A DNA stretch of 64,000 nt, taken from contig JAVJQW010000070.1 in assembly GCA_040218735.1 (NCBI GenBank), forward strand, positions 425,370-489,369. The letters run 5' to 3'. The notes under the pieces were generated by a model. That model was not told the origin of the DNA. It ran no database searches and saw only the letters and a list, made by a program, of their open reading frames with translations. Made by a program: the position numbers and the translations under genes. This DNA is from Deltaproteobacteria bacterium (GTDB lineage Bacteria; Myxococcota; Kuafuiibacteriia; Kuafuiibacteriales; Kuafuiibacteriaceae). Below, one piece after another: positions 6,195 to 45,355 of the stretch (within the stretch, counting starts at the first letter, position 1; each line of letters opens with the position of its first letter).

Positions 6195-7180
6195 TGCCGC
6201 GCGCGATGCGCCGCTTGGTCACCATCGTCGCGTTCGCGCTCGTGTTCACCGCAGGCCCCGCTCACGCCGACAAGAGCGCGGCGAAGGACCACTACGAGCG
6301 CGGGACCCGCGCCTACAACCTCGGCCGCTTCGACCAGGCCATCGACCACTTCGCGCGCGCCTACGAGGCGCACCCCTCGCCCGTGTTCCTCTTCAACATC
6401 GCGCAGGCGCACCGGCTCGCCGGGCACTGCGAAAAGGCCGCGTTCTTCTACCGACGCTACCTCTCGGAGGAGCCGGATTCACCGGCGCGCGCGGAGATCG
6501 ACGGTCACCTCCGCACCCTCGCCGACTGCGCCCAGGAGGAACCGAAGGCTCCGCCCCCCGCGCCACCACCGCCTCCGCCCGAGTCCACGTCGCCCAAGGC
6601 TGCTTCGCCCGTGTCCACGTCGACGCGCCCTGCGCCACCGCCCACACCGCCGCCCGCAGCGCCCTGGATCGAGCTGCGGCTCGAGGGCGGCGCGGCGTTC
6701 CTCTCGCTCGGCGACGTCGACGTTCCGGTCCAGGCCGCCGCCGCGGTCGCGGTCGGGCACCCCTTCCGGTTCGACGCGCTCAGCGTCACGCCCGCTGTGT
6801 TCGCGCAGTTCACCTCCGTGCCGTACGAAGGCGGGTCCTCCGGCACCGCGCTGCTCTTCGGGGTGGGGGCCGGCGCTGACGTTCGTTACCACCTCGGCGA
6901 GCGTGTCGCGTTACGCGGCGGCGTCGGGCTCGGCGTGTTGCTGTTGTCCGGCCTCGAAGAAGGCAACCCGATCACGCGCGACGGCAACCCCGCGACCGGC
7001 GCGCTGTCCTTGATCACCGCGCGCGGCCAGCTCGGGCTCGACGTGTTCTTCAACGAGCGCGTCGCGCTCGCGATCACTCCGGTGTCGGTGGGGTTCAGCC
7101 CTCGCCGCGAAGACTTCGCCGACGGCGTGAAGCGCGTCCTCCGCTTCGAGCTGTTGGGCGGCCTCGTCGTGTTCCTGTGA
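6194..7180 (+). CDS. Exported TPR protein with Pro-rich linker and C-terminal outer-membrane beta-barrel-like domain
   Basis: Signal peptide ending AHA, TPR 'AKDHYERG..YNLGRF..A..F..AY...FLFNIAQAHR', alternating amphipathic strands at the C-terminus. Start overlaps the kinase stop, a common myxobacterial kinase-TPR pairing. Confidence 0.8.
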   Translation: MPRAMRRLVTIVAFALVFTAGPAHADKSAAKDHYERGTRAYNLGRFDQAIDHFARAYEAHPSPVFLFNIAQAHRLAGHCEKAAFFYRRYLSEEPDSPARAEIDGHLRTLADCAQEEPKAPPPAPPPPPPESTSPKAASPVSTSTRPAPPPTPPPAAPWIELRLEGGAAFLSLGDVDVPVQAAAAVAVGHPFRFDALSVTPAVFAQFTSVPYEGGSSGTALLFGVGAGADVRYHLGERVALRGGVGLGVLLLSGLEEGNPITRDGNPATGALSLITARGQLGLDVFFNERVALAITPVSVGFSPRREDFADGVKRVLRFELLGGLVVFL

Positions 7181-7198
7181 ACCGACGCGAACCGTGGG

Positions 7199-7762
7199 CT
7201 ACCTCGACGACAGCGGTCCGACCGTCGAAGTCTGCGTCACGGCGAGTGTGTAGAAACGGACGACGCGCTCGCGCTCCTCGACGCGGCCCGTCGGGAACTG
7301 CGCCGCGAACAGCGCGTTCTTGAGGCACTCCCCAGCGAGCTCGATGGCGCCGTTGGCGCTCGGGTCGATCGGTTCCGGCACCTTCCGCACGACGATCGCG
7401 CAGACCAGCCCCGCTGGATCCACGCCGTACCCGACGCGGTAGCCGAGCGGCTCGAAGGCGACGCCTGCGTCCGCGAGGCTCGAGCGGTAGACCTCACGGC
7501 ACGTGTTGGCGCCCTTCCCCATCGCGGCCTCGACCTCGGCGTCCGTGATCCGATCACCGAACGTCTTGCGCTCCGCTTCGTAGGCCGGCTCGGTGAGGCG
7601 CGTCGTCACGCCAACGCAGGGGTCGCGCCCCTTCGGCGGCATGTGCACGGCCTCGGCCCGCATGATGCGCTGCGCTTCGGCGGCGCGTGCGTCGAGGTCG
7701 GCCTGGCTCGGGCCAGCGCACGACGCGGCGAGCAGGCAGAGGATCAGTCCGCGGCGTCCCAT
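7199..7762 (-). CDS. Hypothetical lipoprotein, possibly with a TonB-C/AgmX-PglI-like C-terminal domain
   Basis: 3' part of the 7199..9376 ORF. MGRRGLILCLLAASC lipobox and 'C..VY...ECLKNALFAAQFP'. Overlaps the cysS stop. Confidence 0.65.
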   Translation of the reverse strand: MGRRGLILCLLAASCAGPSQADLDARAAEAQRIMRAEAVHMPPKGRDPCVGVTTRLTEPAYEAERKTFGDRITDAEVEAAMGKGANTCREVYRSSLADAGVAFEPLGYRVGYGVDPAGLVCAIVVRKVPEPIDPSANGAIELAGECLKNALFAAQFPTGRVEERERVVRFYTLAVTQTSTVGPLSSR

Positions 7763-9309
7763 GTCGTTCCGTCCTTCCCGTCCTTGAGGATGATGCCCTT
7801 CGCCTTCAGCTCGTCGCGGATCTCGTCGGCGCGCTTGAAGTCTTTCTTCGCGCGCGCCTCCTTCCGCTCCTCGATGAACGCCTCGATCTGCGCGGGTGTC
7901 AGCTGCAGCGACGACGACCGCGCGAGCTTTCGGCGCTCGAGGTAGGCCTTCGGTTCGGCCTGCCACAGACCGAGCACGTCCCCCATCTGTCGAAGGATGA
8001 CGCGCGCCTCCGCGAGGAGCCGGCTGGTGTTCTCCGGCGACAGCACTTCGCCAATCCGCGCCTTCTCCTGGCCGTGGATGAGCTCGTTCGCGATGTGAAA
8101 GACCTCGGCCGCCTCCGCGAGCGCGCGCGGCGTGTTGAAGTCGTCGTTCATCGCGTCGGTGAAGCGCGCCCACGGGTCCACGTCGAACGTGGCCGCGAGG
8201 TTCTTGCCGGGCACGAACGTCTGCTCGTTCGTGAACGCGTCCATCGCTTCGAGCGTCTCGTAGTTCTTGTCGAGGCGCTTCTCGGCGGCGTCGAGCAGGT
8301 CGTGGGAGAACGCGATCGGCGAACGGTACTGGCTCGTGAGGAAGAGCATCCGCAGCGCTTCGCCCTCGTACTGCGCGAGCATCTCGCGCACGGGGTAGAA
8401 GTTGCCGCGGGACTTCGACATCTTGAAGTCCATCTCCGTGAACGTGTAGCCGCACGCGCAGTGGTGCCCGGACTCCGGGATCTTCTCGAGCTCCTTGTCG
8501 CACCCGGGGCACTTCTCGGGCATCAGGTTCACGAAGCCGTTGTGCATCCAGATGTTCGCCATCAGCTCCGTGCCGTTGGCGGCGCAGGACTGGGCGAGCT
8601 CGTTTTCGTGGTGCGGGAAGACGAGGTCCTTGCCGCCCGCGTGGATGTCGAAGACCTCGCCGAGGTACTTGCCGCTCATGGCCGAGCACTCGATGTGCCA
8701 GCCGGGACGGCCCTTGCCCCACGGTGAGTCCCACGACGGCTCGCCCGGCTTGGCCGACTTCCACAGCGCGAAGTCGGCGGCGGCGCGTTTGCGGGTGTCC
8801 ACCGCGACGCGGGCGCCCTCTTCCTGCTCGTCGAGCTTGCGCCCGGAGAGCGCGCCGTAGGCTTCGTACTTCGCGACTTCGAAGTAGACGTCGCCGTCGA
8901 CGTCGTACGCGAAGCCCTTTGCGATCAGCGTCTCGATCATCGCGACGATCTCGGCGATGTGGGTCGTGACTCGCGGCTCGATGTTGGGCTCGAGGCAGCC
9001 GAGCTCCGACATGTCCGAAGAGAACTGCGCGATGAAGCGGTTCGTGACCTCGTCGGTCGTCTCGCCGTTGGCGTTCGCGGCCTTGATGATCTTGTCGTCG
9101 ACGTCCGTGAAGTTGCGGACGTAGGTGACGAGATACTGGGTCTTGAGCCAGCGATAGACGACGTCGAAGGCGACGTAACAGCGGCCGTGGCCGATGTGCG
9201 TCGGGGCGTAGACGGTGACGCCACAGACGTACATGCGAACCTTGCCCGGTTCGAGCGGGTTGAAGTCGACTTTCTCCCGAGTGCGGGTATCGAAGACTCT
9301 CAGGCCCAT
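7744..9309 (-). CDS. cysS: Cysteine--tRNA ligase
   Basis: MYVCGVTVY..HIGH, RNFTDVDDKII, DFALWK, GRPGWHIECSAM, DLVFPHHENE, KMSKS, MNDDFNTP. Confidence 0.98.
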   Translation of the reverse strand: MGLRVFDTRTREKVDFNPLEPGKVRMYVCGVTVYAPTHIGHGRCYVAFDVVYRWLKTQYLVTYVRNFTDVDDKIIKAANANGETTDEVTNRFIAQFSSDMSELGCLEPNIEPRVTTHIAEIVAMIETLIAKGFAYDVDGDVYFEVAKYEAYGALSGRKLDEQEEGARVAVDTRKRAAADFALWKSAKPGEPSWDSPWGKGRPGWHIECSAMSGKYLGEVFDIHAGGKDLVFPHHENELAQSCAANGTELMANIWMHNGFVNLMPEKCPGCDKELEKIPESGHHCACGYTFTEMDFKMSKSRGNFYPVREMLAQYEGEALRMLFLTSQYRSPIAFSHDLLDAAEKRLDKNYETLEAMDAFTNEQTFVPGKNLAATFDVDPWARFTDAMNDDFNTPRALAEAAEVFHIANELIHGQEKARIGEVLSPENTSRLLAEARVILRQMGDVLGLWQAEPKAYLERRKLARSSSLQLTPAQIEAFIEERKEARAKKDFKRADEIRDELKAKGIILKDGKDGTTWDAAD

Positions 9310-9452: not shown

Positions 9453-9938
9453 CTACGCGTGGAAGATCTGTGTGAACTCCGCTTCGACTTCTTCTTCGCC
9501 CATGTCGCGCGCGATGGAGAGCTCCTTCACGAGGAGCGACTTGGCCGTGTCGAGCATCTTGCGCTCGCCGAACGACAGGTCCTTGTCGTTCTTGAGCAGG
9601 TACAGGTCACGAAGGACCTCGGCGATCTGCTTCGGATCTCCGCTGTCGATCTTGTCCTTGTACTCGCGGTAGCGGCGGTTCCACGTGGTCGACTCGACGG
9701 AAATCTCCTTCTCTCGAAGGACGTCGAAGACCTCGTCGACTTCGCCGGGGCTCATGATCTCTCGGAGCCCATTGGCACCCGTCGGGATCATCACCTTCAC
9801 GCCGTTGTCGAGGATGCGCAGGATGTAAAACGTCTGCTTGTCTCCTCCGACCTCGTGGCTTTCGATCCCCGTGACTTCCGCCACGCCGTGTGCCGGATAA
9901 ACGGCTTTGTCACCAACCTGGAAAGGCAAACTCTGCAT
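9453..9938 (-). CDS. cdnL: CarD/CdnL family RNA polymerase-binding transcription factor
   Basis: FQVGDKAVYPAHGVAEV, TWNRRYREY, IAEVLRDL, LSFGERKML. 161 aa with no HMGA tail. GGAGG RBS. Confidence 0.93.
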   Translation of the reverse strand: MQSLPFQVGDKAVYPAHGVAEVTGIESHEVGGDKQTFYILRILDNGVKVMIPTGANGLREIMSPGEVDEVFDVLREKEISVESTTWNRRYREYKDKIDSGDPKQIAEVLRDLYLLKNDKDLSFGERKMLDTAKSLLVKELSIARDMGEEEVEAEFTQIFHA

Positions 9939-10125
9939 TCAATGCCTCCGTGAACGCCGAGCCTGTGCAGGATGCATGAAAGCACCCCAAACGTACGGCT
10001 GACGTCCGAATCGAGCGGTGGGCCAACGCTCTGGAACTATTGCGAAAACTACGCTTTTTAGGGCGTCCCTTGCCTCGATAGCGTTCTTGGGATTCCGTGC
10101 TCGACATCACCCAAGAAGCGGCGGC

Positions 10126-29611: not shown

Positions 29612-29676
29612 ACCCCGGACCCAAGACCGACGGTCGCTGCCTTTCGCGCCGTCGGTTCTTGCCCTATAGAAGCGGC

Positions 29677-30312
29677 ATGAAAGTGGAAGATCTGCAGGCT
29701 GCCCTCGTTGGACGAGGTTGGACTGTCGAAGTGAAGAAACCCAAAGACCTGGACCCACCGCACAAGCTGGTGAAGGTCCTGAAGGGGGGCCTCTTCAAGT
29801 GCGTCGATGGTCGCTTCTCCGACCAGGCCGCCATGCGAGGTCCGAAAGCCCTGGGTGGCGTGTACGCCATCGCGTCCATGCGAGGCGCACGCACGGTGGC
29901 TGAGCTCCAGAAGATCGTCCAGGACATGAACAAGGCCGGCAAGTACACGCCGTGCGTGCACGGGGACACCCACGGGGGCCCGCTCGGCTGCGGTTACTTC
30001 AAGCTCTGGAAGACGGGGCAGCTGCCTGGCCTGACTCCGCCGAAGTACGACGGCGACTTCGGACGCGCGGCCGTGCTCGCGGCGGGCGGGGTCTACGAGG
30101 GCCTCGTCGGTTCGCACGAGGAGTCGTTCACGGTGATCAACCTGAAGCCGAACACGACGCTCGAGCCGAACTACGAGAACCAGCGCTTCGTCCTCGACGC
30201 ATGGGTCGCCAAGGAGTTCCGCATCGATCTCGCCAAGTACGCAGTGACGGCGGCGGAGACGGTCGAGCGGCTACGCCCCGCGGCGATGCACGCGGTCATC
30301 GTCGTGCCCTGA
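29677..30312 (+). CDS. Zeta-class (cadmium-type, CDCA1-like) carbonic anhydrase, single repeat
   Basis: AL.GRGW, KCVDGR, GPK.LGGVYAIA, P.VHGD, LGCGYFKLW.TG, GSHEE, INL..N.TLEP, QRF.LD.W, A.A.TVE.L: colinear with the diatom CDCA1 repeat as I recall it. Confidence 0.9.
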   Translation: MKVEDLQAALVGRGWTVEVKKPKDLDPPHKLVKVLKGGLFKCVDGRFSDQAAMRGPKALGGVYAIASMRGARTVAELQKIVQDMNKAGKYTPCVHGDTHGGPLGCGYFKLWKTGQLPGLTPPKYDGDFGRAAVLAAGGVYEGLVGSHEESFTVINLKPNTTLEPNYENQRFVLDAWVAKEFRIDLAKYAVTAAETVERLRPAAMHAVIVVP

Positions 30313-35215: not shown

Positions 35216-38200
35216 GTGCGCGTCGGATCCAGACCACTCGAGACGCTCCGTACGGGCGACGACGATCCCGCGACACCGCGCGCCGCGGAACCGCTGCGTC
35301 TCCCCGACGCGCCCCGCACGACCGGCGCGGCGAAGTCGAACACGAAGCCGCGCTCCACGAGCGGGGTCGCCGCGTTCATGACGAATGCGCTGCGGCGCTT
35401 CGACAAGGCGGCCGCCGCGGTGATGATCGGCGCCCTGCCGCTCCCCGCGCTCGCGGGCGGACCGCTCCTCGCGGAGGACCACGCCCGGTTCGATCCCGAG
35501 GTCCGCATCGAGGCCCACGTCCTGCCGTGGCGCGCCGCGGGGGGCCTTGCCGGATCGGTCGACGCGCGCGACGTGTTCCAGGCGCACCTCACGGATCGCC
35601 TGCGCGACATCGAGGCCCAGCGCGCGCAGTTCCTCGCGACCGCGCCGCCCGACCCGGTGGTGCGGACGGATCTGCTGCGCCTGTCGGAGGTCGTGCGGCG
35701 CTTCGATCGAATGGTCGACGGCGCCCGGCTCCCCCCGAACCTCCTCGCCGACATGGACCGTGTCCTCGACGCGATCGAGGCGGCCCGGCCGGGGGTCTAC
35801 ACGCCGGCGATCGATCTCGCGTTGCTCGACCTTCCCTCGGTGTCGCGCGTCGAGGTCGGTGCACCGACGATCCCCGCGGCCGACCTGACCGCGATCCTCG
35901 ACGCCTCGCCGACCGACCTCCCCGACCAGATGGCGGCGGTCCTCGCCAGTTACTCGGCGATCATGTCGAACGCCGACGCTGCGCTGAACGTGCTGCCGGG
36001 CTTCACGTACGTCAGCCCCGTCCCGCTGTTCTACGACTCGGGCGATGGTGTGCTGCTCGTCCCGCCCGGCGCGACGGTCGAGAGCCAAAACGGTCAGTTC
36101 TCGATCCACGCGCCGCAGATGTTCTGGCGGCAGGACGGTCTGCTCGTCGCCGCCGAAGAAGGCACCGTCCACCTCGGTTCCGAGCTCGACGGCCTCACCG
36201 CGAGCACCGCCTCCGCGCAGGGGGACGACTGGTCCGCGGTCACCGAGGACTTCGTCGCCGGCGTGCGACGCGACGACGGCTACGGCGTGATCGCCGCGCG
36301 GCGCATGGACCTCGATTTAGCGTCCGGCTCGGCGCACCTCGAAGACGCCGAGCTCGTCGTGGCCGACACCGGCGACGCGGAGCTGTTCGCCGGGGCGCTC
36401 GACTTCTCGGCCGGCAACCGAACGCTCTCGGCCGACACCCTCACCGCGACGCAGACCCGCGACGGGACGACGGCGTCCGCGGCGCACATCGCGTTCGGCG
36501 ACGGCGTCACTTCGATCTCGGGTTCCGCGGTCGACCTCCACTTCGGACCGAACGGCGCGACGCTGAGCGGCGAACGGCTCGACATCACGAACGGCACGAC
36601 CCGCGGCACGCTCGAAGGCGCTCGGGCGTCGCTCCGTCCGACCGACGACGGGCACGACCTCGCGTTCGTCGCGGACCGCGCCCACTTCGAGGACGGCGTT
36701 CAGACGATCGATCTGTCGGGCGCCGACGCAAACGCGAGCTTCGACGCCGACGGCCACCTCACCGCGCTCGATGGTCGGGCGAGCAGCACGAACGTCACCA
36801 CGGGCGCCGGCGCGTTCATCGGCACCAACGGCGCGATCGCGGCGCGCTTCGACCGGGGCACCCTCACCGCGATCGACGCGAGCACCGCGACCGGTCAGTG
36901 GACCGGGACGGACGGGACCGTCGTCGCCGCGAGCGACGCGGGCCTCGCCCTCGCCTTCGATGACGGTCGCCTCCGCCAGGCGACGCTCGCGTCCGGTGCG
37001 CTCCACGTCGTGCAGGGCGACCACGACGCCGCCCTCCAGGGCCTCGACCTGAACGTCGCGTTCGACGAAGCGGGTCACCTCGACGAGGCCACCGGCCGCG
37101 CCGCGCGCCTCGACTACCGAAACACCGACGGCACCCTCGTCGGCGCGGGCGACGTTCGGTTGAACGTCGACGCGACCGGCGGCGTGCTGGATCGTGTGCA
37201 GCTCGCGGCCGGGCAGCTCGACTACCAACGCGGAGCGGAGTCCCTCGCGGTCACGAACGGCACCCTGGTCCTCGACGCGGAGGGCGGTCGTGTGACCCAC
37301 GCCGTCGCGACGTTCGACGCCGCGACCTACGAGGCCGGCTTCGGGCGCCTCGCACTCGCGGGGACGTCGCTGTCGATCGACTACACCGACGACGGCACGA
37401 CCTTCCACGGCTTCGCCGAGCACCTCGACCTCGCGAACGACGGCGGGCGCCTCCTCGTCGACGGCGGCGCGGTGAACGGCTCGCTCCGCCCGGACGGTAC
37501 GCTGGAGGCGTTGGGTCTGTCCGGCGACCACCTCGCGTACACGGGCACGACCGAGGGCGACCACCCGCTCGTCGTCGACCTCGCGAGCCCGTCCGCCGTG
37601 CTCACCGCGCTCGACGGCGGCGGGCAGCGGCTCGACTTCACGACCGGCGCCGGTCACTTCGAGGTCGACGGTCACCGGGTCGCGCTCGAAGGCCTCGAAC
37701 TGCTCACGCTCACCACCACCCCCGACGGCGAGGTCGACACCTTCGCGGCGGACTTCGACGGGCAGCTCGACTTCGTCCAGCGCGGCGGCGACCTCACCGT
37801 CCTCACACGTGACGTCGAGACGACCTACGACCGTGCGACCTCCACGCTCACGCTGGACTTCGCGGAGGCCGACGTCGCCCTCCGCAGCGCGGGGCTGCAG
37901 GCCCGCATCGAGGGGGCGCACGGCGAGCTCGACGATTCGCGCGTCTTCATCTCCGTCGACCGCGCCGAGGTGCTCCGCGATCTCGGCGAGCAGCTGAACG
38001 TCGAGGTCGAGTCCCTCACCGTCGAAGCCACGCGCACCGCGACGGGCGCGCTGCAGACGCTCGACCTGTCGCTCGCGAGCCTCGACGCCGACATCGCCGG
38101 CATCCACGCGATCGTCCGGACGCCGGACGGGGAGCGCCTGCGGCTGCACATCGGCACCGACGAGAGCGGCCAGACGGTGCAGCACGCCTACCTCCTCATC

Positions 38201-39406
38201 CCGGAGGGCGGCGAGGTGCGGCTCACGCAGGACGACGACAGCGTTCGGCTCGGCGGCCAGCTCATCAGCTACACCCTCGGCGACGATGGCATCTACCGCC
38301 TCCGCGGCGAGAGCCTCGACCTCGAAGCGAGGACGAAGGACTTCGGCGTGCGGGTCGAGGGCGGCGACGCGCAGGTCTCGCTCGACCCCGCGACGGGGCG
38401 GCTCACGATCGACGAGATCACCGGCACCCGCATCGACGTGAATCACGACGATCTCGCGTTCACGATCGACGTCGAAGCGATGAACGACTTCATGGTCCGC
38501 GCGACGCGCCTGAGCGGCGGCGCCACGGGCCTCGCCTTCCACCTCGAGCCCACCCGCGACGGCTCGAGCCTGACCGCGTTCACCACGGGCGAGGTCGGCG
38601 GGCTCCCGTTCACGCTGGGCTTCTCGAACGTGCACGAGCTGGAGGGGCTCGGCGCCATCTCCGAGAACCAAGTGCATGCCTACTTGCGCGACCCGAGCGG
38701 GCGCGGCCACATCGAGCTCGGCTTCGGGCCGCTCGAGATGTCGGGGTCCGCGCTGGAGTTCGTGGGGCGTTACCACCCCTACGACGCCGGGCGAATGCTC
38801 GAGACGGTGCAGCGCTACACGACGCTCGCCGGCACCGAGGTGTTCAGCGGCCTCTCCTTCGACCACGACGGCGTGGTCCGCCTCGGCACCGACCGCGAGG
38901 GCCTCAACGCCGAGCTCGCCGTGGTCCTCCCGCGCCAGTACGCCCTCCCCGGCTACCGCTTCGCGGTCACGGACCAACCGGCCGCGGCGCCGGGCGTGAT
39001 CGGCAGCGTCGGCTGGCGCCACGAGGACTTCACGTTCAGCGTCTTCGGCGGCCTCGTCCCCGGCGCACACGCGACCGGCTACGTGAAGGAAGGCGACGCG
39101 TCGTTGTTCGGCGTCGGCGTCCCGGACCGCTTCGACCTCCCCGCCACCGTCATCGGCGGCGGCCGCGTCGACCTGGGCAACTTCGCGAACGGCGACCTGT
39201 CCGTCGTCGCCGGCGGCTACTACAACCCTGCGAGCGCCGTCGACAGCCCGTTCCTCAACGAGCCCACGGCCTTCGGCGCCTTCGGCGGCCTCGAGTACCG
39301 CGACGACGACGGCTGGTTCGTCAACGGCAGCGCCGTCGCGGACTTCGACCGAGGCGGCACGGTCCAGGGCGGCGCCGTGATGCTGATGCTCGGCGCGAAG
39401 TTCTGA
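35216..39406 (+). CDS. Large acidic beta-strand-rich hypothetical protein with a possible C-terminal outer-membrane barrel
   Basis: 1396-aa ORF with host-like codon use and repeated short beta hairpins ('FD.DG.L'). Ends MLMLGAKF. Confidence 0.7.
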   Translation: MRVGSRPLETLRTGDDDPATPRAAEPLRLPDAPRTTGAAKSNTKPRSTSGVAAFMTNALRRFDKAAAAVMIGALPLPALAGGPLLAEDHARFDPEVRIEAHVLPWRAAGGLAGSVDARDVFQAHLTDRLRDIEAQRAQFLATAPPDPVVRTDLLRLSEVVRRFDRMVDGARLPPNLLADMDRVLDAIEAARPGVYTPAIDLALLDLPSVSRVEVGAPTIPAADLTAILDASPTDLPDQMAAVLASYSAIMSNADAALNVLPGFTYVSPVPLFYDSGDGVLLVPPGATVESQNGQFSIHAPQMFWRQDGLLVAAEEGTVHLGSELDGLTASTASAQGDDWSAVTEDFVAGVRRDDGYGVIAARRMDLDLASGSAHLEDAELVVADTGDAELFAGALDFSAGNRTLSADTLTATQTRDGTTASAAHIAFGDGVTSISGSAVDLHFGPNGATLSGERLDITNGTTRGTLEGARASLRPTDDGHDLAFVADRAHFEDGVQTIDLSGADANASFDADGHLTALDGRASSTNVTTGAGAFIGTNGAIAARFDRGTLTAIDASTATGQWTGTDGTVVAASDAGLALAFDDGRLRQATLASGALHVVQGDHDAALQGLDLNVAFDEAGHLDEATGRAARLDYRNTDGTLVGAGDVRLNVDATGGVLDRVQLAAGQLDYQRGAESLAVTNGTLVLDAEGGRVTHAVATFDAATYEAGFGRLALAGTSLSIDYTDDGTTFHGFAEHLDLANDGGRLLVDGGAVNGSLRPDGTLEALGLSGDHLAYTGTTEGDHPLVVDLASPSAVLTALDGGGQRLDFTTGAGHFEVDGHRVALEGLELLTLTTTPDGEVDTFAADFDGQLDFVQRGGDLTVLTRDVETTYDRATSTLTLDFAEADVALRSAGLQARIEGAHGELDDSRVFISVDRAEVLRDLGEQLNVEVESLTVEATRTATGALQTLDLSLASLDADIAGIHAIVRTPDGERLRLHIGTDESGQTVQHAYLLIPEGGEVRLTQDDDSVRLGGQLISYTLGDDGIYRLRGESLDLEARTKDFGVRVEGGDAQVSLDPATGRLTIDEITGTRIDVNHDDLAFTIDVEAMNDFMVRATRLSGGATGLAFHLEPTRDGSSLTAFTTGEVGGLPFTLGFSNVHELEGLGAISENQVHAYLRDPSGRGHIELGFGPLEMSGSALEFVGRYHPYDAGRMLETVQRYTTLAGTEVFSGLSFDHDGVVRLGTDREGLNAELAVVLPRQYALPGYRFAVTDQPAAAPGVIGSVGWRHEDFTFSVFGGLVPGAHATGYVKEGDASLFGVGVPDRFDLPATVIGGGRVDLGNFANGDLSVVAGGYYNPASAVDSPFLNEPTAFGAFGGLEYRDDDGWFVNGSAVADFDRGGTVQGGAVMLMLGAKF

Positions 39407-39430
39407 ACGGCTCGGGACGCCGCGTGAGGT

Positions 39431-40744
39431 CTACGCCGCTCCCTCCAACGCGCTGATGATCTCGGCGGTCCACGAAATTGCTTCGCCCCGACTGCGACGG
39501 GACTCCTCGAGCAGTTCGAGGTTTCGCGCGGTCGACTCTGGCTCCCACGGTTCACGCACGAGGCTCAAGGCTCGCTTTAGAGCCTCGCGCGCCCCCGCCT
39601 CATCCCCGCCGATAATGGCCAGCTCGAGCATCGTCGCAAAGTCCCAGTAGTCCTCGCGCCCCGACGCAATTCTGCGTGCTGCGGCATATCGAACGACTGG
39701 CAGGAGTCGTCCTCGGTCGGGAACCCCTGCGATCTCCATGAGCGTGAGCGCGTTGATCCCCGGGTAGGCATCACGCCAGTCAGACTCGAATCCGAGCGTG
39801 TACGCCTCGATGGCCCGATGCAGATAAGCCGACGACGACGGTGTCCCGCGTGCGTCGGCCCATCGGTCCTTGAGCACGCGCCCGAGCAGTCCACACGATT
39901 CGCTACTCGGACCTCGCTCCGCGATGATTGCCCGGAGGATCCTCTCGGCGTCCTCGCCGTGCCCCATTCGGTTGAGGGCAAGCGCCCGCTGCTCGCGCAC
40001 TAGAGTCGTTGCTTCGAGGTGAGTGGGCATCTCATCGCAGAGCGCGACCATCTCTGACCAGCCGCGGACAGCACGAAACGACAGCAGAAGGTCCACAAGC
40101 ACTGCGGTCGACACCGCAGCTACGGAGCCGTGCGTCGTGATCAGACCTGCCCGAACTGCTGCGACCGACTCGAGCTTCATCGTACGGCGCGCGTCGGCCA
40201 ACTGCTCCTTGACCTCGACCGCGTACACGACGAGATCGCGAAACGCGTCAGTCTTGAGGCGCTCGATCGGAGCAGGCGGCGGGGCGTCCAACAAGTCTAC
40301 GAGGGCACGGTCTGAAGCGCCTCCGTCAGAACGCGTCATCGCCTTGGCCAAGCTCCCCACAAGAGAGCCGTCGGACGCCGGAACACCCGATGCTCCGAGC
40401 TCATATCGAAGGACTGGCCATCCAAATCCATCGCCTTCGACACGTGTGCCTTCCGCGGCGATGACCGTCGTTTCTCTCCAGCGGAGGGCGTGTCGGACTC
40501 CAAGCGCGTAGTACGCATCCGGCGCAGCCAAGGAGAGATCCACGATTAGGTGCCCGGCCAAGAGGACCGCCTCGAGGTCGGACCCGTGAATCGAAGTCAG
40601 GCGGTAGAGCTCGAAGCCGCCCTGCGTCGCGGCGGGTCTCAGCAGGTTCTCGTATACGCCATCCATGTCAATGTGGCGGCCTACTGCGTCTTGTCGAATC
40701 CCGGTGGGAACGAGCGCACAGCACAGACGACGAACGTCAGTCAT
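39431..40744 (-). CDS. NDT-like + MAP3K TRAF-binding (DUF4071/TPR-S) domain protein
   Basis: 'IDMDGVY..L.RPA', 'VDLS....AYYALGVRHA', 'LLLSFRAV..W..MV', 'EQRALALNR', 'SESCGLLGRVLKD.W', 'AY..GF......YPGINA', 'DYWDFAT'. ATG 40744 overlaps the upstream stop. Confidence 0.85.
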   Translation of the reverse strand: MTDVRRLCCALVPTGIRQDAVGRHIDMDGVYENLLRPAATQGGFELYRLTSIHGSDLEAVLLAGHLIVDLSLAAPDAYYALGVRHALRWRETTVIAAEGTRVEGDGFGWPVLRYELGASGVPASDGSLVGSLAKAMTRSDGGASDRALVDLLDAPPPAPIERLKTDAFRDLVVYAVEVKEQLADARRTMKLESVAAVRAGLITTHGSVAAVSTAVLVDLLLSFRAVRGWSEMVALCDEMPTHLEATTLVREQRALALNRMGHGEDAERILRAIIAERGPSSESCGLLGRVLKDRWADARGTPSSSAYLHRAIEAYTLGFESDWRDAYPGINALTLMEIAGVPDRGRLLPVVRYAAARRIASGREDYWDFATMLELAIIGGDEAGAREALKRALSLVREPWEPESTARNLELLEESRRSRGEAISWTAEIISALEGAA

Positions 40745-43517
40745 GGAACGGGACGTCCACCGACGAAAAGAGTCGTTCGCGAGTCGGGTACTGGCCAATC
40801 AACAACGGCGTTGCCCATCCGGGGCTGTCCAAAGACTGACTGCGGCGGGCAACCATCAGCGCCCGCCCCGCATCGAAGTCTGTCTTGACGAGCTCCTCGT
40901 AGAAATCCGAAGCAAGTCGCGGTGCGACGTCATCCGCGATCGGCCATACGTGCGCGACGACCTCCGTGACACCTCCCTCAACCAGATCAGAGGCAAGCGT
41001 TTGAACGCCCACGCGTTCGTCTGTAGAGATATCAGGAAGCGCACTCGTGCATACATTCAGGAAAACGAACCTCACATCGTGACCGCTGACCCACCGGCGT
41101 AGGTCGGCTCCGTAAACTCGTCCCTTCGGATCGTCGGTAGGATTCAGCTGAAGGTAGGGGACCCCACTCTCGAACCCAGCGTGACCAGCGAAATGAACCA
41201 TCTGGAACTGGTTTTCTCGAAGCTGATTCTCTAGCTCATCTGGCGTCGCCGTCATGGCCGATAGGACCCGCACATTGGATACCGGCCATCCGAGGACCTC
41301 GAATCGAGCCGCTAGAATGTCTCGGACTTCCGCCAGCTCGTCATCGACATTCGGAAGCCCAGGCGCCCGCGAGCCCACAACGAGAACACGCGGAGGCGGC
41401 ATCTCGCCTCTGGCGAGCGCTTCGTCTATCGGGAGTGGAAAGGAATCGATGCTCAGGTCGGTGAGGTAGCGTCGGACCGGACGCCGACGTCCGAGCGGGT
41501 CACCTGCACCACTCATATGCATCCATTCCCACGGCATCGATAGGCTCTTTCGATCCCCGCGAATGCAGAGCCTTGCGTTCGACTCGATGAGCGGAGTGCA
41601 GCCGTCCTCGTCCGTCCTCTGTTCGCTCGCGAGCAGAGCGCCTGTCTTCCACGTCACATCGCGCCACTTCGCGCTGTCACCCGCGAGCGGTACGACCATC
41701 TCGAACACCTTCTGAACGGGACCCGTGGCGGGTTCCCATTGGCTCTCACTCGTTGAAGCAAACCTCGCCCATCGTACAAAGCTCTGAAGATTCGGATAGA
41801 GGCGCTCTCGCGTGAGAATCTTACGTAACCATTGTCGGTCCTTGTCATGACTCACATATCGTAGCGCCGCCGAAAGCAGAGCCGCGAGTGCCGCATTACC
41901 CGCCGCATCGACCTCGGCCAGCGAAATCAGGGTGGGGAGCAAGTTCTTCGCGTCGACATCCTCGACTTCCTTGAGCAGCCGATCGACCTCATCCGGCGCC
42001 AAGCGGGCGTCGCCCTCCACAATTCGTCTCAGATCGTTCGTGTCGCTCAGTTGCGGCTCGACGAGCTCACGTATCCGCGTCGCGCTCGCCTCGTCGATCG
42101 GTCGCGGAGCGTCCTTTCCAAGGATCGATGTCACGTGCTCCACAACCGCGGGGGACTTGGCTTTCTCGAGCTCGAAATAGCGGTCGACGGTCAAGAAGTC
42201 CGGCAGTCGCCTCCGATCGCTCCCATTGAAGATGAGAAATCGTAACTCGCGACGGGTCCACTTCTCGACGGCGAGCTCGAGCTCCAATCGGCAGAACTCG
42301 CTCTCCCAATAGTCGTCATCGATGATTGCGAGAAACAAACTCGCAGCGCCGACCTCCTTCTTGAGGTTCTCGATGAGCTCCCCCGTCTTCTGATTGCTCT
42401 CCTCCATGTACTGGAAGCAGGGGAAGCCAGCGGCCTTCAATCCCGTTGCGATCGCCACGGCGCGATCGTTCTGGCTATTGGCATTGCTCACGAAGACGCG
42501 TCTGCCGCCAATGCTGAGCAGGTACTCGATAACGTCCTTGACGTAATGGAGGTCGCGCCCCCGATCTTGGTGTTCTTTGAGCTTGTCTACAATGTAGTCA
42601 GCGACGCTGCCTTGGTCAGCGTCACTCCAGAAGTGCACCGGCTCCATTCTTTCATCGAGTTGGTATCCCGCCAGGAGAGGAGGCGCACTTCGCGCCGCGG
42701 CGGCCTCGCTCAACAGGAGCCCAAGTCGCTGTCGCGCCTGATTTTCATCTTCGTCCGGACTCAGCCGGCAAATGCGAAGGCACGCAACGGATGAAGCATG
42801 AATGAGCGCAAGGATGTGTTCCGGAGTGGAATCGGACCCGAAGTCAGCGACAACGACATCGATGGACTCCATACGTCCCAGGACCTCGATATCGAGATTC
42901 GAGCTTTGGCCACTGAGCTCGAATCGATCGACTTTGAAGAAGTCGCCGTTCTTCTTCTTTCCGCGTAGCTCCACTTCCCGGCGAACCGCCTCGAGAGGGC
43001 TGCTCGTGTCTGTCAGAAGGAAGGCCGGAGCGGACTCGTGCTGGGCCGGACGAACGTGCTCCCGAGCTCGACTGACGAAGCTGGAGATCTGACGATCGAT
43101 GGTGGAGGGGTCGCCGTGGTCGGCGAAGTCATTCGATTCTCGATCGAAGTACAACATGCGCGTTCGATCGGAGCCGACAAGCGGCCCCGCTGGAATGCGG
43201 TTCTCCGCTATAATCAGTCGGGGCTTGCGAGACCGAATCGCGAGGCCGTACTCGAAGGCTTGGTACGGCGACCAAGCCGGCGTGTCTACAGTTGACCGGT
43301 CGGGAACAATCGCGACGAAACCACCAGTACGTCGCATCATGTGTTCGAGGAAGGTCACGTCCATGGGAGCTTCATTGCCGTTCCACTTGCCGCCATCGAC
43401 GGTGAAGTGAATTCCGTGGTCAGCGAGCCGGCGAAGCAGCGCCATCTGGATGCGCCTGTCTCCCGGACGATAGCTATGGCTTAGGTAGACAAGGACCTTA
43501 CTGGTATCCGCTGTCAT
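40737..43517 (-). CDS. Multi-TIR + CHAT (caspase-family protease) protein
   Basis: TIR1 'VYLSHSY...SPYQAFEYGLA'. TIR2 'VFVSNA...DYWESEFCRLELELA'. CHAT 'PWE', 'LPNVDDE', 'VHFAGHA', 'VFLNVC', 'W.I.D', 'WATP'. Confidence 0.85.
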   Translation of the reverse strand: MTADTSKVLVYLSHSYRPGDRRIQMALLRRLADHGIHFTVDGGKWNGNEAPMDVTFLEHMMRRTGGFVAIVPDRSTVDTPAWSPYQAFEYGLAIRSRKPRLIIAENRIPAGPLVGSDRTRMLYFDRESNDFADHGDPSTIDRQISSFVSRAREHVRPAQHESAPAFLLTDTSSPLEAVRREVELRGKKKNGDFFKVDRFELSGQSSNLDIEVLGRMESIDVVVADFGSDSTPEHILALIHASSVACLRICRLSPDEDENQARQRLGLLLSEAAAARSAPPLLAGYQLDERMEPVHFWSDADQGSVADYIVDKLKEHQDRGRDLHYVKDVIEYLLSIGGRRVFVSNANSQNDRAVAIATGLKAAGFPCFQYMEESNQKTGELIENLKKEVGAASLFLAIIDDDYWESEFCRLELELAVEKWTRRELRFLIFNGSDRRRLPDFLTVDRYFELEKAKSPAVVEHVTSILGKDAPRPIDEASATRIRELVEPQLSDTNDLRRIVEGDARLAPDEVDRLLKEVEDVDAKNLLPTLISLAEVDAAGNAALAALLSAALRYVSHDKDRQWLRKILTRERLYPNLQSFVRWARFASTSESQWEPATGPVQKVFEMVVPLAGDSAKWRDVTWKTGALLASEQRTDEDGCTPLIESNARLCIRGDRKSLSMPWEWMHMSGAGDPLGRRRPVRRYLTDLSIDSFPLPIDEALARGEMPPPRVLVVGSRAPGLPNVDDELAEVRDILAARFEVLGWPVSNVRVLSAMTATPDELENQLRENQFQMVHFAGHAGFESGVPYLQLNPTDDPKGRVYGADLRRWVSGHDVRFVFLNVCTSALPDISTDERVGVQTLASDLVEGGVTEVVAHVWPIADDVAPRLASDFYEELVKTDFDAGRALMVARRSQSLDSPGWATPLLIGQYPTRERLFSSVDVPFHD

Positions 43518-43530
43518 CGAGCACCAGAGG

Positions 43531-44088
43531 TCAGACGTTCCCGATACGCCAGCGGCCGTTTTCACTCTGTTCCAGCAGCGTCACTTCAGAGGGCGCCGCC
43601 CGGCTCTTTCGAAGAAGGCCTTCCAGGATGTTCCGGACCTCGTCCTGCGTGAGCTCGCGCTGCCCCGAGATCGCCGCAGCAAGCTCCACCACGGTCTGGC
43701 CCGGTTTGCCGAGCGTCTTGGCGCGCTTGAGAGCCCGCAAGACCAATACCTCGTCACCGTTCACTTCGACCTTCAACTGCTGGTAGCGAAGGAACAGCGT
43801 GACCAATCCCGGCAGTGCGGCAGCAGGGCTGGTGATGAAGAAACTTAGTGATGAAGCGACGATGGACTCGACCAGCTTCAACGACGCATCGGGCACTGCG
43901 AAGTGCCTGTCCTTCGAGAAAAGGTCTGCATCGAGCCGCCGTTGCTCGGCCTGCGGATGGTGATGAATGATGACGTCAATGGCCGCTTCTTGGATGACGG
44001 CGGCGCGTCGTTCACCCTTCAATGACTCATCGAGTCGGCGGTCCAGCTCGAGACGAACCTCATCGAGCGTGTATTCCTTGACTGTCAT
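43531..44088 (-). CDS. Hypothetical protein with central hydrophobic segment and C-terminal winged-helix-like region
   Basis: ATG 44088 with GGAGGAGG RBS. 'IVASSLSFFITSPAAALPGLVTLFL', 'TVVELA...TQDEVRNIL..L...LEQ..NGRWRI'. Confidence 0.7.
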   Translation of the reverse strand: MTVKEYTLDEVRLELDRRLDESLKGERRAAVIQEAAIDVIIHHHPQAEQRRLDADLFSKDRHFAVPDASLKLVESIVASSLSFFITSPAAALPGLVTLFLRYQQLKVEVNGDEVLVLRALKRAKTLGKPGQTVVELAAAISGQRELTQDEVRNILEGLLRKSRAAPSEVTLLEQSENGRWRIGNV

Positions 44089-44113
44089 TGGCCCTCCTCC
44101 TGCTTGCGACTGC

Positions 44114-44142
44114 ACCGTAGGTCTCCCCAGAGAAACGGTCAA
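44114..44142 (-). promoter_or_regulatory. Candidate sigma70 promoter of the island operon
   Basis: Minus strand TTGACC-N17-TACGGT, 25 nt upstream of ATG 44088. Confidence 0.6.
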
Positions 44143-44176
44143 CGTGGCGGAAGGACTCCAAGTCAGCGTTTGGGGG

Positions 44177-45355
44177 TCACGGCGACGGGACGTCGTCCAT
44201 GCGCTCCGACGCGAGCTGTGCGGCGTGTTTCATGAGCGCCGGGAAGTCGCGCGCCACCGTCTGGAACTCGTCGGCCGCGAGCGTGAGGAGCAGGCACTTC
44301 TTCGAGGCCACGACCGACGCCGTCGCCGGGAGGCCGGTCATCACGGAGATCTCGCCGAAGAGCGAGCCCGAGCCGAGCTCGGCGACGATCTCTTCGTTGC
44401 GGCGGATCTCGACCTCGCCGTGGATCAGGATGAACAGCCCCGCCGCGGTGGTGCCCTGCGAGATCAGGCTCGCGCCCTTCTTTACGTTGGTCGGGTGGAA
44501 GCGTTTGCCGAGCGCCGCGCGCTCCTCCTCCGAGAGCGCGTCGAACGGCTTCGCCTTGCGCAGCACGTTTGCGATCAGGCGCTCGCCGAACACCCGCAGG
44601 ACCTCCGACAGGATCGACGGGTCCTCCTGGATGAGGCGCGTGAGCACCTCCAGCCTCAGCTCCAACAGCTGCGACGGCATCGTGGTCCGCACCGTCGCGC
44701 CGCGCTTCGCGCCGTCCTTGCCGCGCGCGAAGAGCGACATCTCGCCGAAGAACTCACCCGAGCCGAGCTTCGCCACCGGCGGCGCGTCGACCTCCAGCAG
44801 CACCTCGACCTCACCTTCGGCCACCACGTACATCGAGGACGCGGCGTCCCCCTTCTCGAACACGACCTCGCCCGCCGGGAGCTCGTGCAGCGTCGAGCTC
44901 TCCAGCAGCTCCTCGAACGCGGCCGGGCCGAGGCTCGAGAACAGCGCGATCGGCGGGAGGATGCTCACGCTGATCTGCAGGTCCTCCGACTCCGGCTCGG
45001 ACGGGGGCGGCGCGTCCGTCACCGGCACCGCGGGCGCCGGCAGCTCACCGCTGTTGAGCGCTTCGATGACCGCCTTGGTGTGCGGGTTGTTCTTGTCGAG
45101 CGCGAGGGCGAGCTTCGCCATCGCGATCCCCTTCATCGGCACACCGGACTGCGCAAACGCGAGCGCCGCGCGGCAGAGGCCCTGGATGCGCCCGGGGCGA
45201 TCCTTCTTCGCGCGACAGACCTCCGCGATCCGGCTCGGCCAGGTGGGGTCCGTCGGCTCGCGGCGTTCGAGATCCTCGTAGCGTCGGATCGCTTCGTCGT
45301 GATCACCCCGGTCGAAGGCCGCCTCGGCCACCGCGATCATCTCGGCGCGCGTCAT
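44177..45355 (-). CDS. TPR + tandem cyclic-nucleotide-binding domain protein
   Basis: N-terminal TPR-like helices. Two cNMP domains 'GEFFGEMSL...RGATV' and 'GSLFGEISV...ATASV'. Confidence 0.88.
   Translation of the reverse strand: MTRAEMIAVAEAAFDRGDHDEAIRRYEDLERREPTDPTWPSRIAEVCRAKKDRPGRIQGLCRAALAFAQSGVPMKGIAMAKLALALDKNNPHTKAVIEALNSGELPAPAVPVTDAPPPSEPESEDLQISVSILPPIALFSSLGPAAFEELLESSTLHELPAGEVVFEKGDAASSMYVVAEGEVEVLLEVDAPPVAKLGSGEFFGEMSLFARGKDGAKRGATVRTTMPSQLLELRLEVLTRLIQEDPSILSEVLRVFGERLIANVLRKAKPFDALSEEERAALGKRFHPTNVKKGASLISQGTTAAGLFILIHGEVEIRRNEEIVAELGSGSLFGEISVMTGLPATASVVASKKCLLLTLAADEFQTVARDFPALMKHAAQLASERMDDVPSP

Follow-up and report, generated by a model that had tools for sequence, protein, structure and literature searches.

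A candidate TIR-CHAT operon with a ThsI-like partner gene in a bacterium of the Myxococcota

We analysed a 64,000-nt stretch of a deltaproteobacterial genome (Myxococcota, Kuafuiibacteriaceae; GenBank assembly GCA_040218735.1, contig JAVJQW010000070.1, positions 425,370 to 489,369 of the forward strand), hereafter the window, with a focus on a block of three genes that we name A, B and C. Gene B encodes a multidomain protein with a TIR domain and a caspase-like CHAT protease, gene A a small winged-helix protein, and gene C a protein that resembles, by description, ThsI of the type VIII Thoeris system (Yirmiya et al., bioRxiv 10.64898/2025.12.03.692087). Our favoured reading, to which we give slightly less than an even chance, is that the block is a composite TIR-signalling anti-phage operon, made of a rare A-B core and a sensor-only ThsI-like partner, C.

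Organisation of the block

The block consists of three co-oriented open reading frames on the minus strand. An earlier note, made from the sequence alone, had described a gap of 13 nt between the first two genes and an overlap of 8 nt between the last two; the coordinates and the sequence agree with both. The spacing from A to B is 13 nt, and B and C share the 8 nt ATGACTGA, both as read from the sequence. This overlap implies that the translation of the two genes is coupled.

Gene A, 43531..44088, minus strand: 185 residues counted from the ATG (translated open reading frame)
Gene B, 40737..43517, minus strand: 926 residues, multidomain TIR-CHAT protein (translated open reading frame)
Gene C, 39431..40744, minus strand: 437 residues, ThsI-like protein (translated open reading frame)
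Shine-Dalgarno sequence, 44092..44101, minus strand: AGGAGGAGG, 4-7 nt 5' of the ATG of gene A, read directly
Promoter-like TTGACC-N17-TACGGT, 44114..44142, minus strand: 5' of gene A, below the threshold of the promoter scan

The same note had credited the block with its own promoter and a strong ribosome-binding site, of which the second stands (the Shine-Dalgarno sequence above). The promoter-like hexamers are present, but the downstream one matches TATAAT at three of six positions, and the scan of positions 39000-44600 listed no site, against a mean of 0.9 in shuffled sequence. The motif is thus not above chance and carries no weight here. The block had also been described as a stretch of lower GC content between ordinary host genes, and this was borne out: GC content is 0.58-0.66 over positions 39500-44000 and 0.70-0.73 in the flanks. 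Codon composition gives the same contrast, with a GC content at third codon positions (GC3) of 0.73 in A, 0.68 in B and 0.71 in C, against 0.82-0.96 in five neighbouring genes. A search of sequencing runs for the block returned one DNA set, which may be that of the source sample, and no RNA set.

The TIR-CHAT protein encoded by gene B

The structure of B was modelled with AlphaFold from 10 sequences (mean predicted local distance difference test, pLDDT, 72.7), and the fold search covered residues 337-469 and 587-912. Invariant columns were taken from an alignment of 10 sequences. The protein falls into five regions:

B residues 1-160, 43038..43517, minus strand: TIR/NDT-like Rossmannoid domain, a lead only; invariant E89
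B residues 161-335, 42513..43037, minus strand: alpha/beta domain, no Pfam match
B residues 336-470, 42108..42512, minus strand: TIR domain; invariant E412 in a C..EL motif
B residues 471-586, 41760..42107, minus strand: helical linker in the model, sub-threshold EAD8 match
B residues 587-912, 40782..41759, minus strand: CHAT (caspase-like) protease; invariant H775, H779 and C823

The TIR domain is matched by the Pfam profile TIR_2 at residues 341-430 (E = 1.2e-10). Its modelled fold matches the TIR domains of MAL, RPP1 and RPS4 (Z 13.7) and deoxyribosyltransferases (Z 12.6-12.9). E412, which we take to be the catalytic glutamate of TIR domains, is invariant in all 10 sequences; when the profile is aligned to Cat1, L6 and Roq1, the C..EL motif is in register.

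The CHAT domain is matched by its Pfam profile (PF12770) at residues 648-893, with E = 7.7e-23 and 81.8 bits for a cut-off of 24. All 10 sequences keep H775, H779 and C823, and the HxAGH stretch can be aligned to its counterpart in a SAVED-CHAT protein (8tl0); the His/Cys catalytic dyad is in place. In the model, this domain has a caspase-like (clan CD) fold. Over 260-287 aligned residues it matches Csx29 (Z 20.8, root-mean-square deviation 3.7, 277 residues aligned) as well as separase and gingipain (Z 18.2); it also matches DdvA (Z 17.4) and SAVED-CHAT (Z 15.2, 24% identity).

The earlier note had placed two TIR domains in B ahead of the protease. The second TIR domain and the CHAT protease stand, by Pfam and by fold, whereas the N-terminal domain has no Pfam match and owes its TIR/NDT-like label to the ESM Atlas. 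Residues 1-160 have an alternating strand-helix pattern in our model; their Atlas language-model features score 0.92 against TIR_2 clusters, and template-modelling (TM) scores of the Atlas model to TIR, NDT and DUF4062 proteins are 0.61-0.77. Their alignment by hhalign to the TIR domain of B itself was not significant (P 0.13), nor was any other comparison among the domains of B, or between these and the N-terminal domain of C (best P 0.007, probability 5%). Hence, sequence profiles do not show the first two domains of B as TIR or NDT. In the second domain (161-335), which the earlier note had labelled NDT, blocks of 10 residues have a pLDDT of 45-86 in the model, with the lowest values at 161-210 and at 271-280. 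The match of the linker to EAD8 (Effector-associated domain 8) is below threshold (E = 0.018, 16.2 bits for a cut-off of 27) and hints at an adaptor-type helical domain.

The B family is rare. Among candidates scored from 5.8 billion protein clusters, we found nine full-length homologues, with 30-33% identity. The matches of B to PADLOC profiles were weak and concerned single domains: SAVED_TIR (6.2e-5), SAVED_CHAT (6.7e-5) and BovA (2.2e-3).

The N-terminal module of B also occurs with another C-terminal domain. A 792-residue protein (L013:1362-3740) carries the three-domain module (profile positions 3-432) followed by a PNP_UDP_1 phosphorylase in place of CHAT; no A-like gene was found on this 4.6-kb contig. 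The same type of fusion occurs in two further proteins (P0016 and P0017).

The ThsI-like protein encoded by gene C

Gene C encodes two parts:

C residues 1-175, 40220-40744, minus strand: diverged DNPH1/NDT-like N-terminal domain without the glutamate
C residues 179-425, 39470-40210, minus strand: TPR-S/MAP3K_TRAF_bd region

The second part is matched by MAP3K_TRAF_bd at residues 179-425 (E = 1.3e-36, 126.9 bits for a cut-off of 24.1) and by TPR-S ('Tetratricopeptide Repeats-Sensor') at residues 229-336 (E = 4.4e-24). The TRAF-binding and TPR label given to C beforehand is therefore sound. The accompanying NDT label has support at the level of the family, while the N-terminal domain of C itself has no match in Pfam; C has none in PADLOC. 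This domain aligns with its family throughout. The family is very large (1723 matches, around 45% identity over the full length), and its profile matches human ASK1 (8qgy, E = 1.2e-17), in an alignment that spans both the hydrolase-like domain and the TPR. The match to Rcl/DNPH1 is weak (E = 0.04), with the YELG motif in register. The Atlas features of a typical member of the family (P0021) fall with NDT clusters (0.91, 193 shared features). Our searches of the literature found no publication on bacterial proteins of this kind, whether as TPR-S together with CHAT and TIR, as DUF4071 or as TRAFs-binding proteins (PF13281/PF20308).

The glutamate of YELG, which we take to be the nucleophile in DNPH1/Rcl, is kept in 114 of 120 members of the family. 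C has alanine in this position (YYALG). The six members that lack the glutamate have alanine (three), histidine, glutamine or aspartate (one each). The two nearest relatives of C (50% identity) are also without it (histidine and alanine), which argues for a maintained subclade rather than fresh decay.

The likeness of C to ThsI was judged from the description in the Thoeris preprint, the family profile and gene neighbourhoods, not from validated ThsI sequences. The neighbourhoods link the family to TIR genes: annotated TIR genes lie within 5 kb of the C-family gene in five of the six plasmid loci examined, and directly flank it in three of them, on plasmids of Pseudomonas, Vibrio and Acinetobacter. 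On plasmids of Agrobacterium and Rhizobium the family occurs with SLATT, and in one locus (L049) the SLATT gene adjoins. C homologues of the phylum have among their neighbours genes for a CAP12-type TIR, TIR-FGE-sulfatase, TIR-nSTAND, DUF4062, TIR-WD40, caspase and patatin; two homologues (L030 and L032) have no obvious partner alongside.

This variety of adjoining effectors (CAP12-type TIR, caspase, patatin, DUF4062) would suit a role for C as the infection sensor, its TPR-S region binding a phage protein and switching on B. The TIR and CHAT domains would then both be effectors, by NAD+ depletion and proteolysis, and no diffusible signal would be needed. The name of the Pfam domain points the same way, as does the missing hydrolase residue, for want of which C cannot itself be an effector. 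Yet B homologues work elsewhere without C. Moreover, the preprint reports that added cyclic ADP-ribose (cADPR) alone is toxic to cells with type VIII systems (bioRxiv 10.64898/2025.12.03.692087), which makes ThsI a receiver of the signal rather than a sensor of the phage. We therefore consider this role of C improbable.

Two further loci of the C family are of interest in their own right. One resembles a defence island (L033:2751-10487), with genes for TIR-nSTAND1-FGE-sulfatase, a reverse transcriptase and TIR-FGE-sulfatase, then a ThsI-like gene. In the other (L031:9174-12867), a Peptidase_C14 caspase gene overlaps the start of a gene for a 906-residue protein, and a metalloprotease-like gene lies upstream. 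The C-terminal half of the 906-residue protein is ThsI-like; its N-terminal part, of about 500 residues, has no assigned family.

The winged-helix protein encoded by gene A

Gene A has no match in Pfam, PADLOC or NCBIfam, and a word-based protein search returned only A itself. A profile search of 1.84 billion representatives was more productive: 92 proteins passed E <= 1e-3 and 16 of them also E <= 1e-30, with most lengths at 170-200 residues. The structural model (pLDDT 88.9) has a C-terminal winged helix at residues 105-185, close to that of YceH (Z 9.9, root-mean-square deviation 1.3 over 72 residues) and also matching Fur and MecI (Z 9.1-9.8). The N-terminal half is helical in the model, with an amphipathic hairpin at about residues 67-105.

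A had been called a winged-helix or hydrophobic protein. The winged helix is confirmed by the fold match, whereas the hydrophobic stretch is borderline, with a maximal Kyte-Doolittle value of 1.64 (1.17-1.81 in four homologues). We did not adopt a transmembrane assignment, given this borderline hydropathy and the charged residues that homologues have in that stretch. Complex predictions of A with residues 161-926 of B scored 0.00, 0.39 and 0.00, and we draw nothing from them.

An A-B core with a variable third gene

In all three loci with DNA upstream of a B homologue (L010, L011 and L012, from metagenomes), an A homologue lies directly upstream. These A homologues have 35-38% identity to A and end 3-13 nt before the B homologue. 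A fourth locus (L009) has only 140 nt upstream of its B homologue and was left out of this count. Downstream the arrangement differs: C follows B in neither of the two other loci with downstream DNA (L009 and L010), where another gene, D, takes its place.

Gene D, L009:2888-3331: directly after the B homologue
Gene D, L010:4822-5265: directly after the B homologue

Gene D encodes about 135-147 residues, with 58% identity between the two loci, and overlaps or abuts B. It belongs to no Pfam or NCBIfam family and is not present in the window. D could be a further partner of the A-B module, either as an effector or by binding the signal. Since A precedes B in three of three loci and D replaces C downstream, we regard A-B as the conserved core and the third gene as variable. 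The expectation that the three genes co-occur thus held for A and B and failed for C, and the case for cooperation between B and C rests on a single locus.

One further locus (genome G354, L056) gives a hint that A goes with the protease. There, an A-family gene (9456-10001) lies tail to tail with the gene of a 919-residue CHAT protein (6542-9301) that has no TIR match, and whose N-terminal 635 residues have neither a Pfam match nor a likeness to B.

The variable third gene is the starting point of the main rival to a composite operon, namely that the block holds two unrelated modules. A-B would be self-contained, with a TIR domain that is an NADase effector or activates CHAT from within, and C would be a dead leftover ThsI from a type VIII system that lost its ThsB. 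The presence of D after B elsewhere is what one would expect in this case. So is the loss of the hydrolase glutamate, rare in the family (6 of 120), and the large independence of the C family from B (1723 matches, against nine full-length B homologues), with the two homologues that have no obvious partner as further examples. Yet the coupled translation implied by the 8-nt overlap ATGACTGA speaks against this. C is open over its full length and keeps the family-invariant columns of TPR-S, its two closest relatives lack the glutamate as well, and its GC3 (0.71) is like that of A and B and unlike that of the host. We judge the leftover explanation unlikely, if worth serious attention, and retain the composite operon as the reading that we pursue.

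Acquisition of the block and its genomic context

No full-length homologue of B was found among 40 relatives. The CHAT part alone was matched in five of these 40 and at a second place in the genome itself (E = 1.9e-7 to 8e-4). A scan of genome contigs with the single B protein matched no relatives, and with the alignment of B it returned one weak match, to the N-terminal domain only (L008); a scan of viral contigs found none. Within the phylum, and with the genome itself counted in both cases, 4 of 401 genomes have the A family and 7 of 301 have homologues of C (E <= 1e-20).

In a genome of the same genus (G001), orthologues of the cyclic nucleotide monophosphate (cNMP)-binding gene (86% protein identity) and of the 1396-residue gene, which flank the block here, enclose a single gene and no A-B-C:

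460-residue gene of G001, L048:6453-7835: GC3 0.94 (native), signal-peptide-like start

The spot between the conserved flanking genes is therefore variable. The atypical GC3 of A, B and C, the absence of full-length B from the 40 relatives and the different occupant of the site in G001 establish that the block is foreign: a horizontally acquired insertion, not core, whose genes were probably acquired together. Its flanks showed neither convincing direct repeats nor convincing att-like sites. The setting is not a defence island. Upstream of the block are genes for the cNMP-binding protein, RlmN, NDK and a POR subunit; downstream is a long gene convergent with C:

1396-residue gene, 35216-39406: convergent with C, 24 nt away, downstream of the block; GC3 0.93, no Pfam match

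Farther neighbours encode TamB, Omp85, GGDEF, PP2C, PfkB, signal peptidase and LepA. Elsewhere in the window (29659-30312), the product of another gene (217 residues) strongly matches the cadmium carbonic anhydrase repeat (CDCA, E = 2.2e-57).

Such surroundings of signalling and housekeeping genes could fit a role outside phage defence, in regulatory proteolysis for development or stress. CHAT would cleave the winged-helix protein A and so alter transcription, as might be compared with the CHAT-containing anti-sigma factor DdvA and with HetF. The fold match to DdvA (Z 17.4) and the DNA-binding-type winged helix of A favour this role, as does a weak match of B to the NCBIfam family HetF (E = 1.7e-5, far under the cut-off). 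Yet the spread of the genes is sporadic (full-length B in 0 of 40 relatives; the A family in 4 of the 401 genomes), the codon usage of the block is foreign, and a different gene holds the same site within the genus. The TIR glutamate and a ThsI-like partner are, in addition, tied to anti-phage signalling in the Thoeris preprint (bioRxiv 10.64898/2025.12.03.692087). We see only a slim chance for a regulatory role.

Proposed mode of action

On the TIR glutamate, the CHAT dyad, the ThsI-like partner, the GC3 of the genes and their absence from relatives, a role in conflict or immunity is the best reading of the block. We read it as a composite operon because the pair of B and C is laid out like type VIII Thoeris, and B alone is reminiscent of type IV, yet TIR and protease are fused, A is added and C is enzyme-dead.

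For such an operon we infer signal production, signal sensing, the targets of the protease, the role of A and protection from phages as follows. Infection would activate the TIR domain of B, which would convert NAD+ into an ADP-ribose-derived signal (canonical cADPR in type VIII). The TPR-S and degenerate hydrolase module of C would read this signal, perhaps together with the degenerate TIR-like domains of B itself. As C has lost the nucleophile glutamate of its hydrolase domain, the killing or arrest output would most likely be the CHAT protease of B and not nucleotide hydrolysis. A could be the transcriptional regulator of the operon, or else a substrate or inhibitor of CHAT; the earlier note had proposed a substrate or a sensor. 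C would occupy the place that D holds after B elsewhere. The coupling of NAD-derived signalling to proteolysis, as the earlier note had suggested, is thus a viable proposal.

A bolder version of the composite operon would make the block a new Thoeris-like type. The dead, ASK1-like ThsI homologue would be a pure receiver that relays a cADPR-type signal, made by the TIR domain, to the CHAT protease in the same polypeptide as that TIR; the protease would then cleave A, or be released from it, with death or reprogramming of the cell as the outcome. We think it doubtful that all of this applies. If it did, bacteria would have a chain from TIR to an ASK-like module to a caspase-like protease, in parallel to the animal chain from SARM1/TIR-1 to ASK1.

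Several points weigh against a composite operon. The TIR domain of B could make a signal or merely burn NAD+, and its sequence is compatible with either. C may be called ThsI-like by description, not by alignment to validated ThsI, and without its glutamate it could be decaying. The A-B count rests on only four loci, which may be related to one another, and C is replaced by D in both of the other loci where the gene after B can be seen. The block lies outside any defence island. Finally, no system model of PADLOC-DB v2.0 fits A-B-C, as had been expected, and A and C match none of its families (0); this release dates from 2023, before types V-XI of Thoeris were named.

In B, a putative signal-making TIR domain and a caspase-like executioner share one polypeptide, and the small winged-helix protein is their conserved partner; no description of a TIR-CHAT or CHAT-TIR protein was found in the literature searched. 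The coupling to C would also offer a natural test of where in ThsI the TIR signal is perceived, and of whether TPR-S can sense for another effector.

Comparison with known systems

The earlier note had held that the combination matches no named system. This no longer stands for B and C: a TIR gene beside a gene for a 'CMP hydrolase' and TPR protein is the definition of type VIII Thoeris, which comprises ThsB (TIR) and ThsI ('CMP hydrolase' and TPR) and signals through canonical cADPR (Yirmiya et al., bioRxiv 10.64898/2025.12.03.692087). According to that preprint, type VIII is especially abundant in Pseudomonadota and ThsI sometimes occurs with a SLATT effector (ThsH). For the pairing of TIR with ThsI-like partners it cites a prediction from 2020; the name dates from 2025.

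The block shares with type VIII a TIR-bearing protein that keeps its glutamate (E412) and is directly coupled to C, whose family has a candidate DNPH1/NDT-like domain followed by TPR-S (ASK-type) repeats. That the TPR of ThsI belongs to the same Pfam family as the TPR-S of C is suggested by the wording of the preprint and its reference 39. The family of C also keeps the expected company, with small TIR genes on gammaproteobacterial plasmids and SLATT on those of Agrobacterium and Rhizobium. The differences are several. There are three genes here and not two, the TIR domain is one of five regions of the 926-residue B, the same polypeptide has a protease, and a conserved gene A is added. C lacks the hydrolase glutamate (YYALG versus YELG), and the B family is found elsewhere without ThsI. 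The pairing of TIR with a ThsI-like protein is of a known kind. The A-B(-D) module seems to be undescribed, and so does its link with a ThsI-like gene that lacks the glutamate.

Type IV Thoeris, in the same source, combines a TIR protein with a caspase-like protease effector, ThsE, and signals through N7-cADPR (bioRxiv 10.64898/2025.12.03.692087). The block resembles it in linking TIR signalling to output by a caspase-like cysteine protease. It differs in that the two are fused in a single open reading frame and that the protease is of the CHAT family, a comparison with ThsE made by description only.

The nucleotide-activated CHAT proteases SAVED-CHAT (PDB 8tl0) and TPR-CHAT/Csx29 of type III-E CRISPR (PDB 7y9x) share with B the CHAT fold and a protease placed after a helical region. 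In B, however, TIR/NDT-class domains are the candidate sensors, and no SAVED domain is matched. The effector-swapping conflict systems that Kaur et al. (2020, eLife, PMC7159879) describe in multicellular prokaryotes also join TIR/DRHyd domains and caspase-like peptidases with adaptor and regulator parts, and the linker of B has its sub-threshold match to EAD8. The core NTPase, vWA-MoxR and GTPase components of those systems are not in the block, and the paper does not use the terms TPR-S and DUF4071.

The last comparison is with the N-terminal regulatory region of ASK1 (MAP3K5), which belongs to the same protein family as C (MAP3K_TRAF_bd, TPR-S). C is a stand-alone bacterial protein without a kinase domain, coupled to a TIR-CHAT gene. 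Yet ASK1 lacks the glutamate too (FYHLG, as C has YYALG), so that the family member coupled to A-B has lost the enzyme residue just as animal ASK1 has. The third gene on the fixed A-B core is thereby a ThsI-like one here and D elsewhere, a case of swapping.

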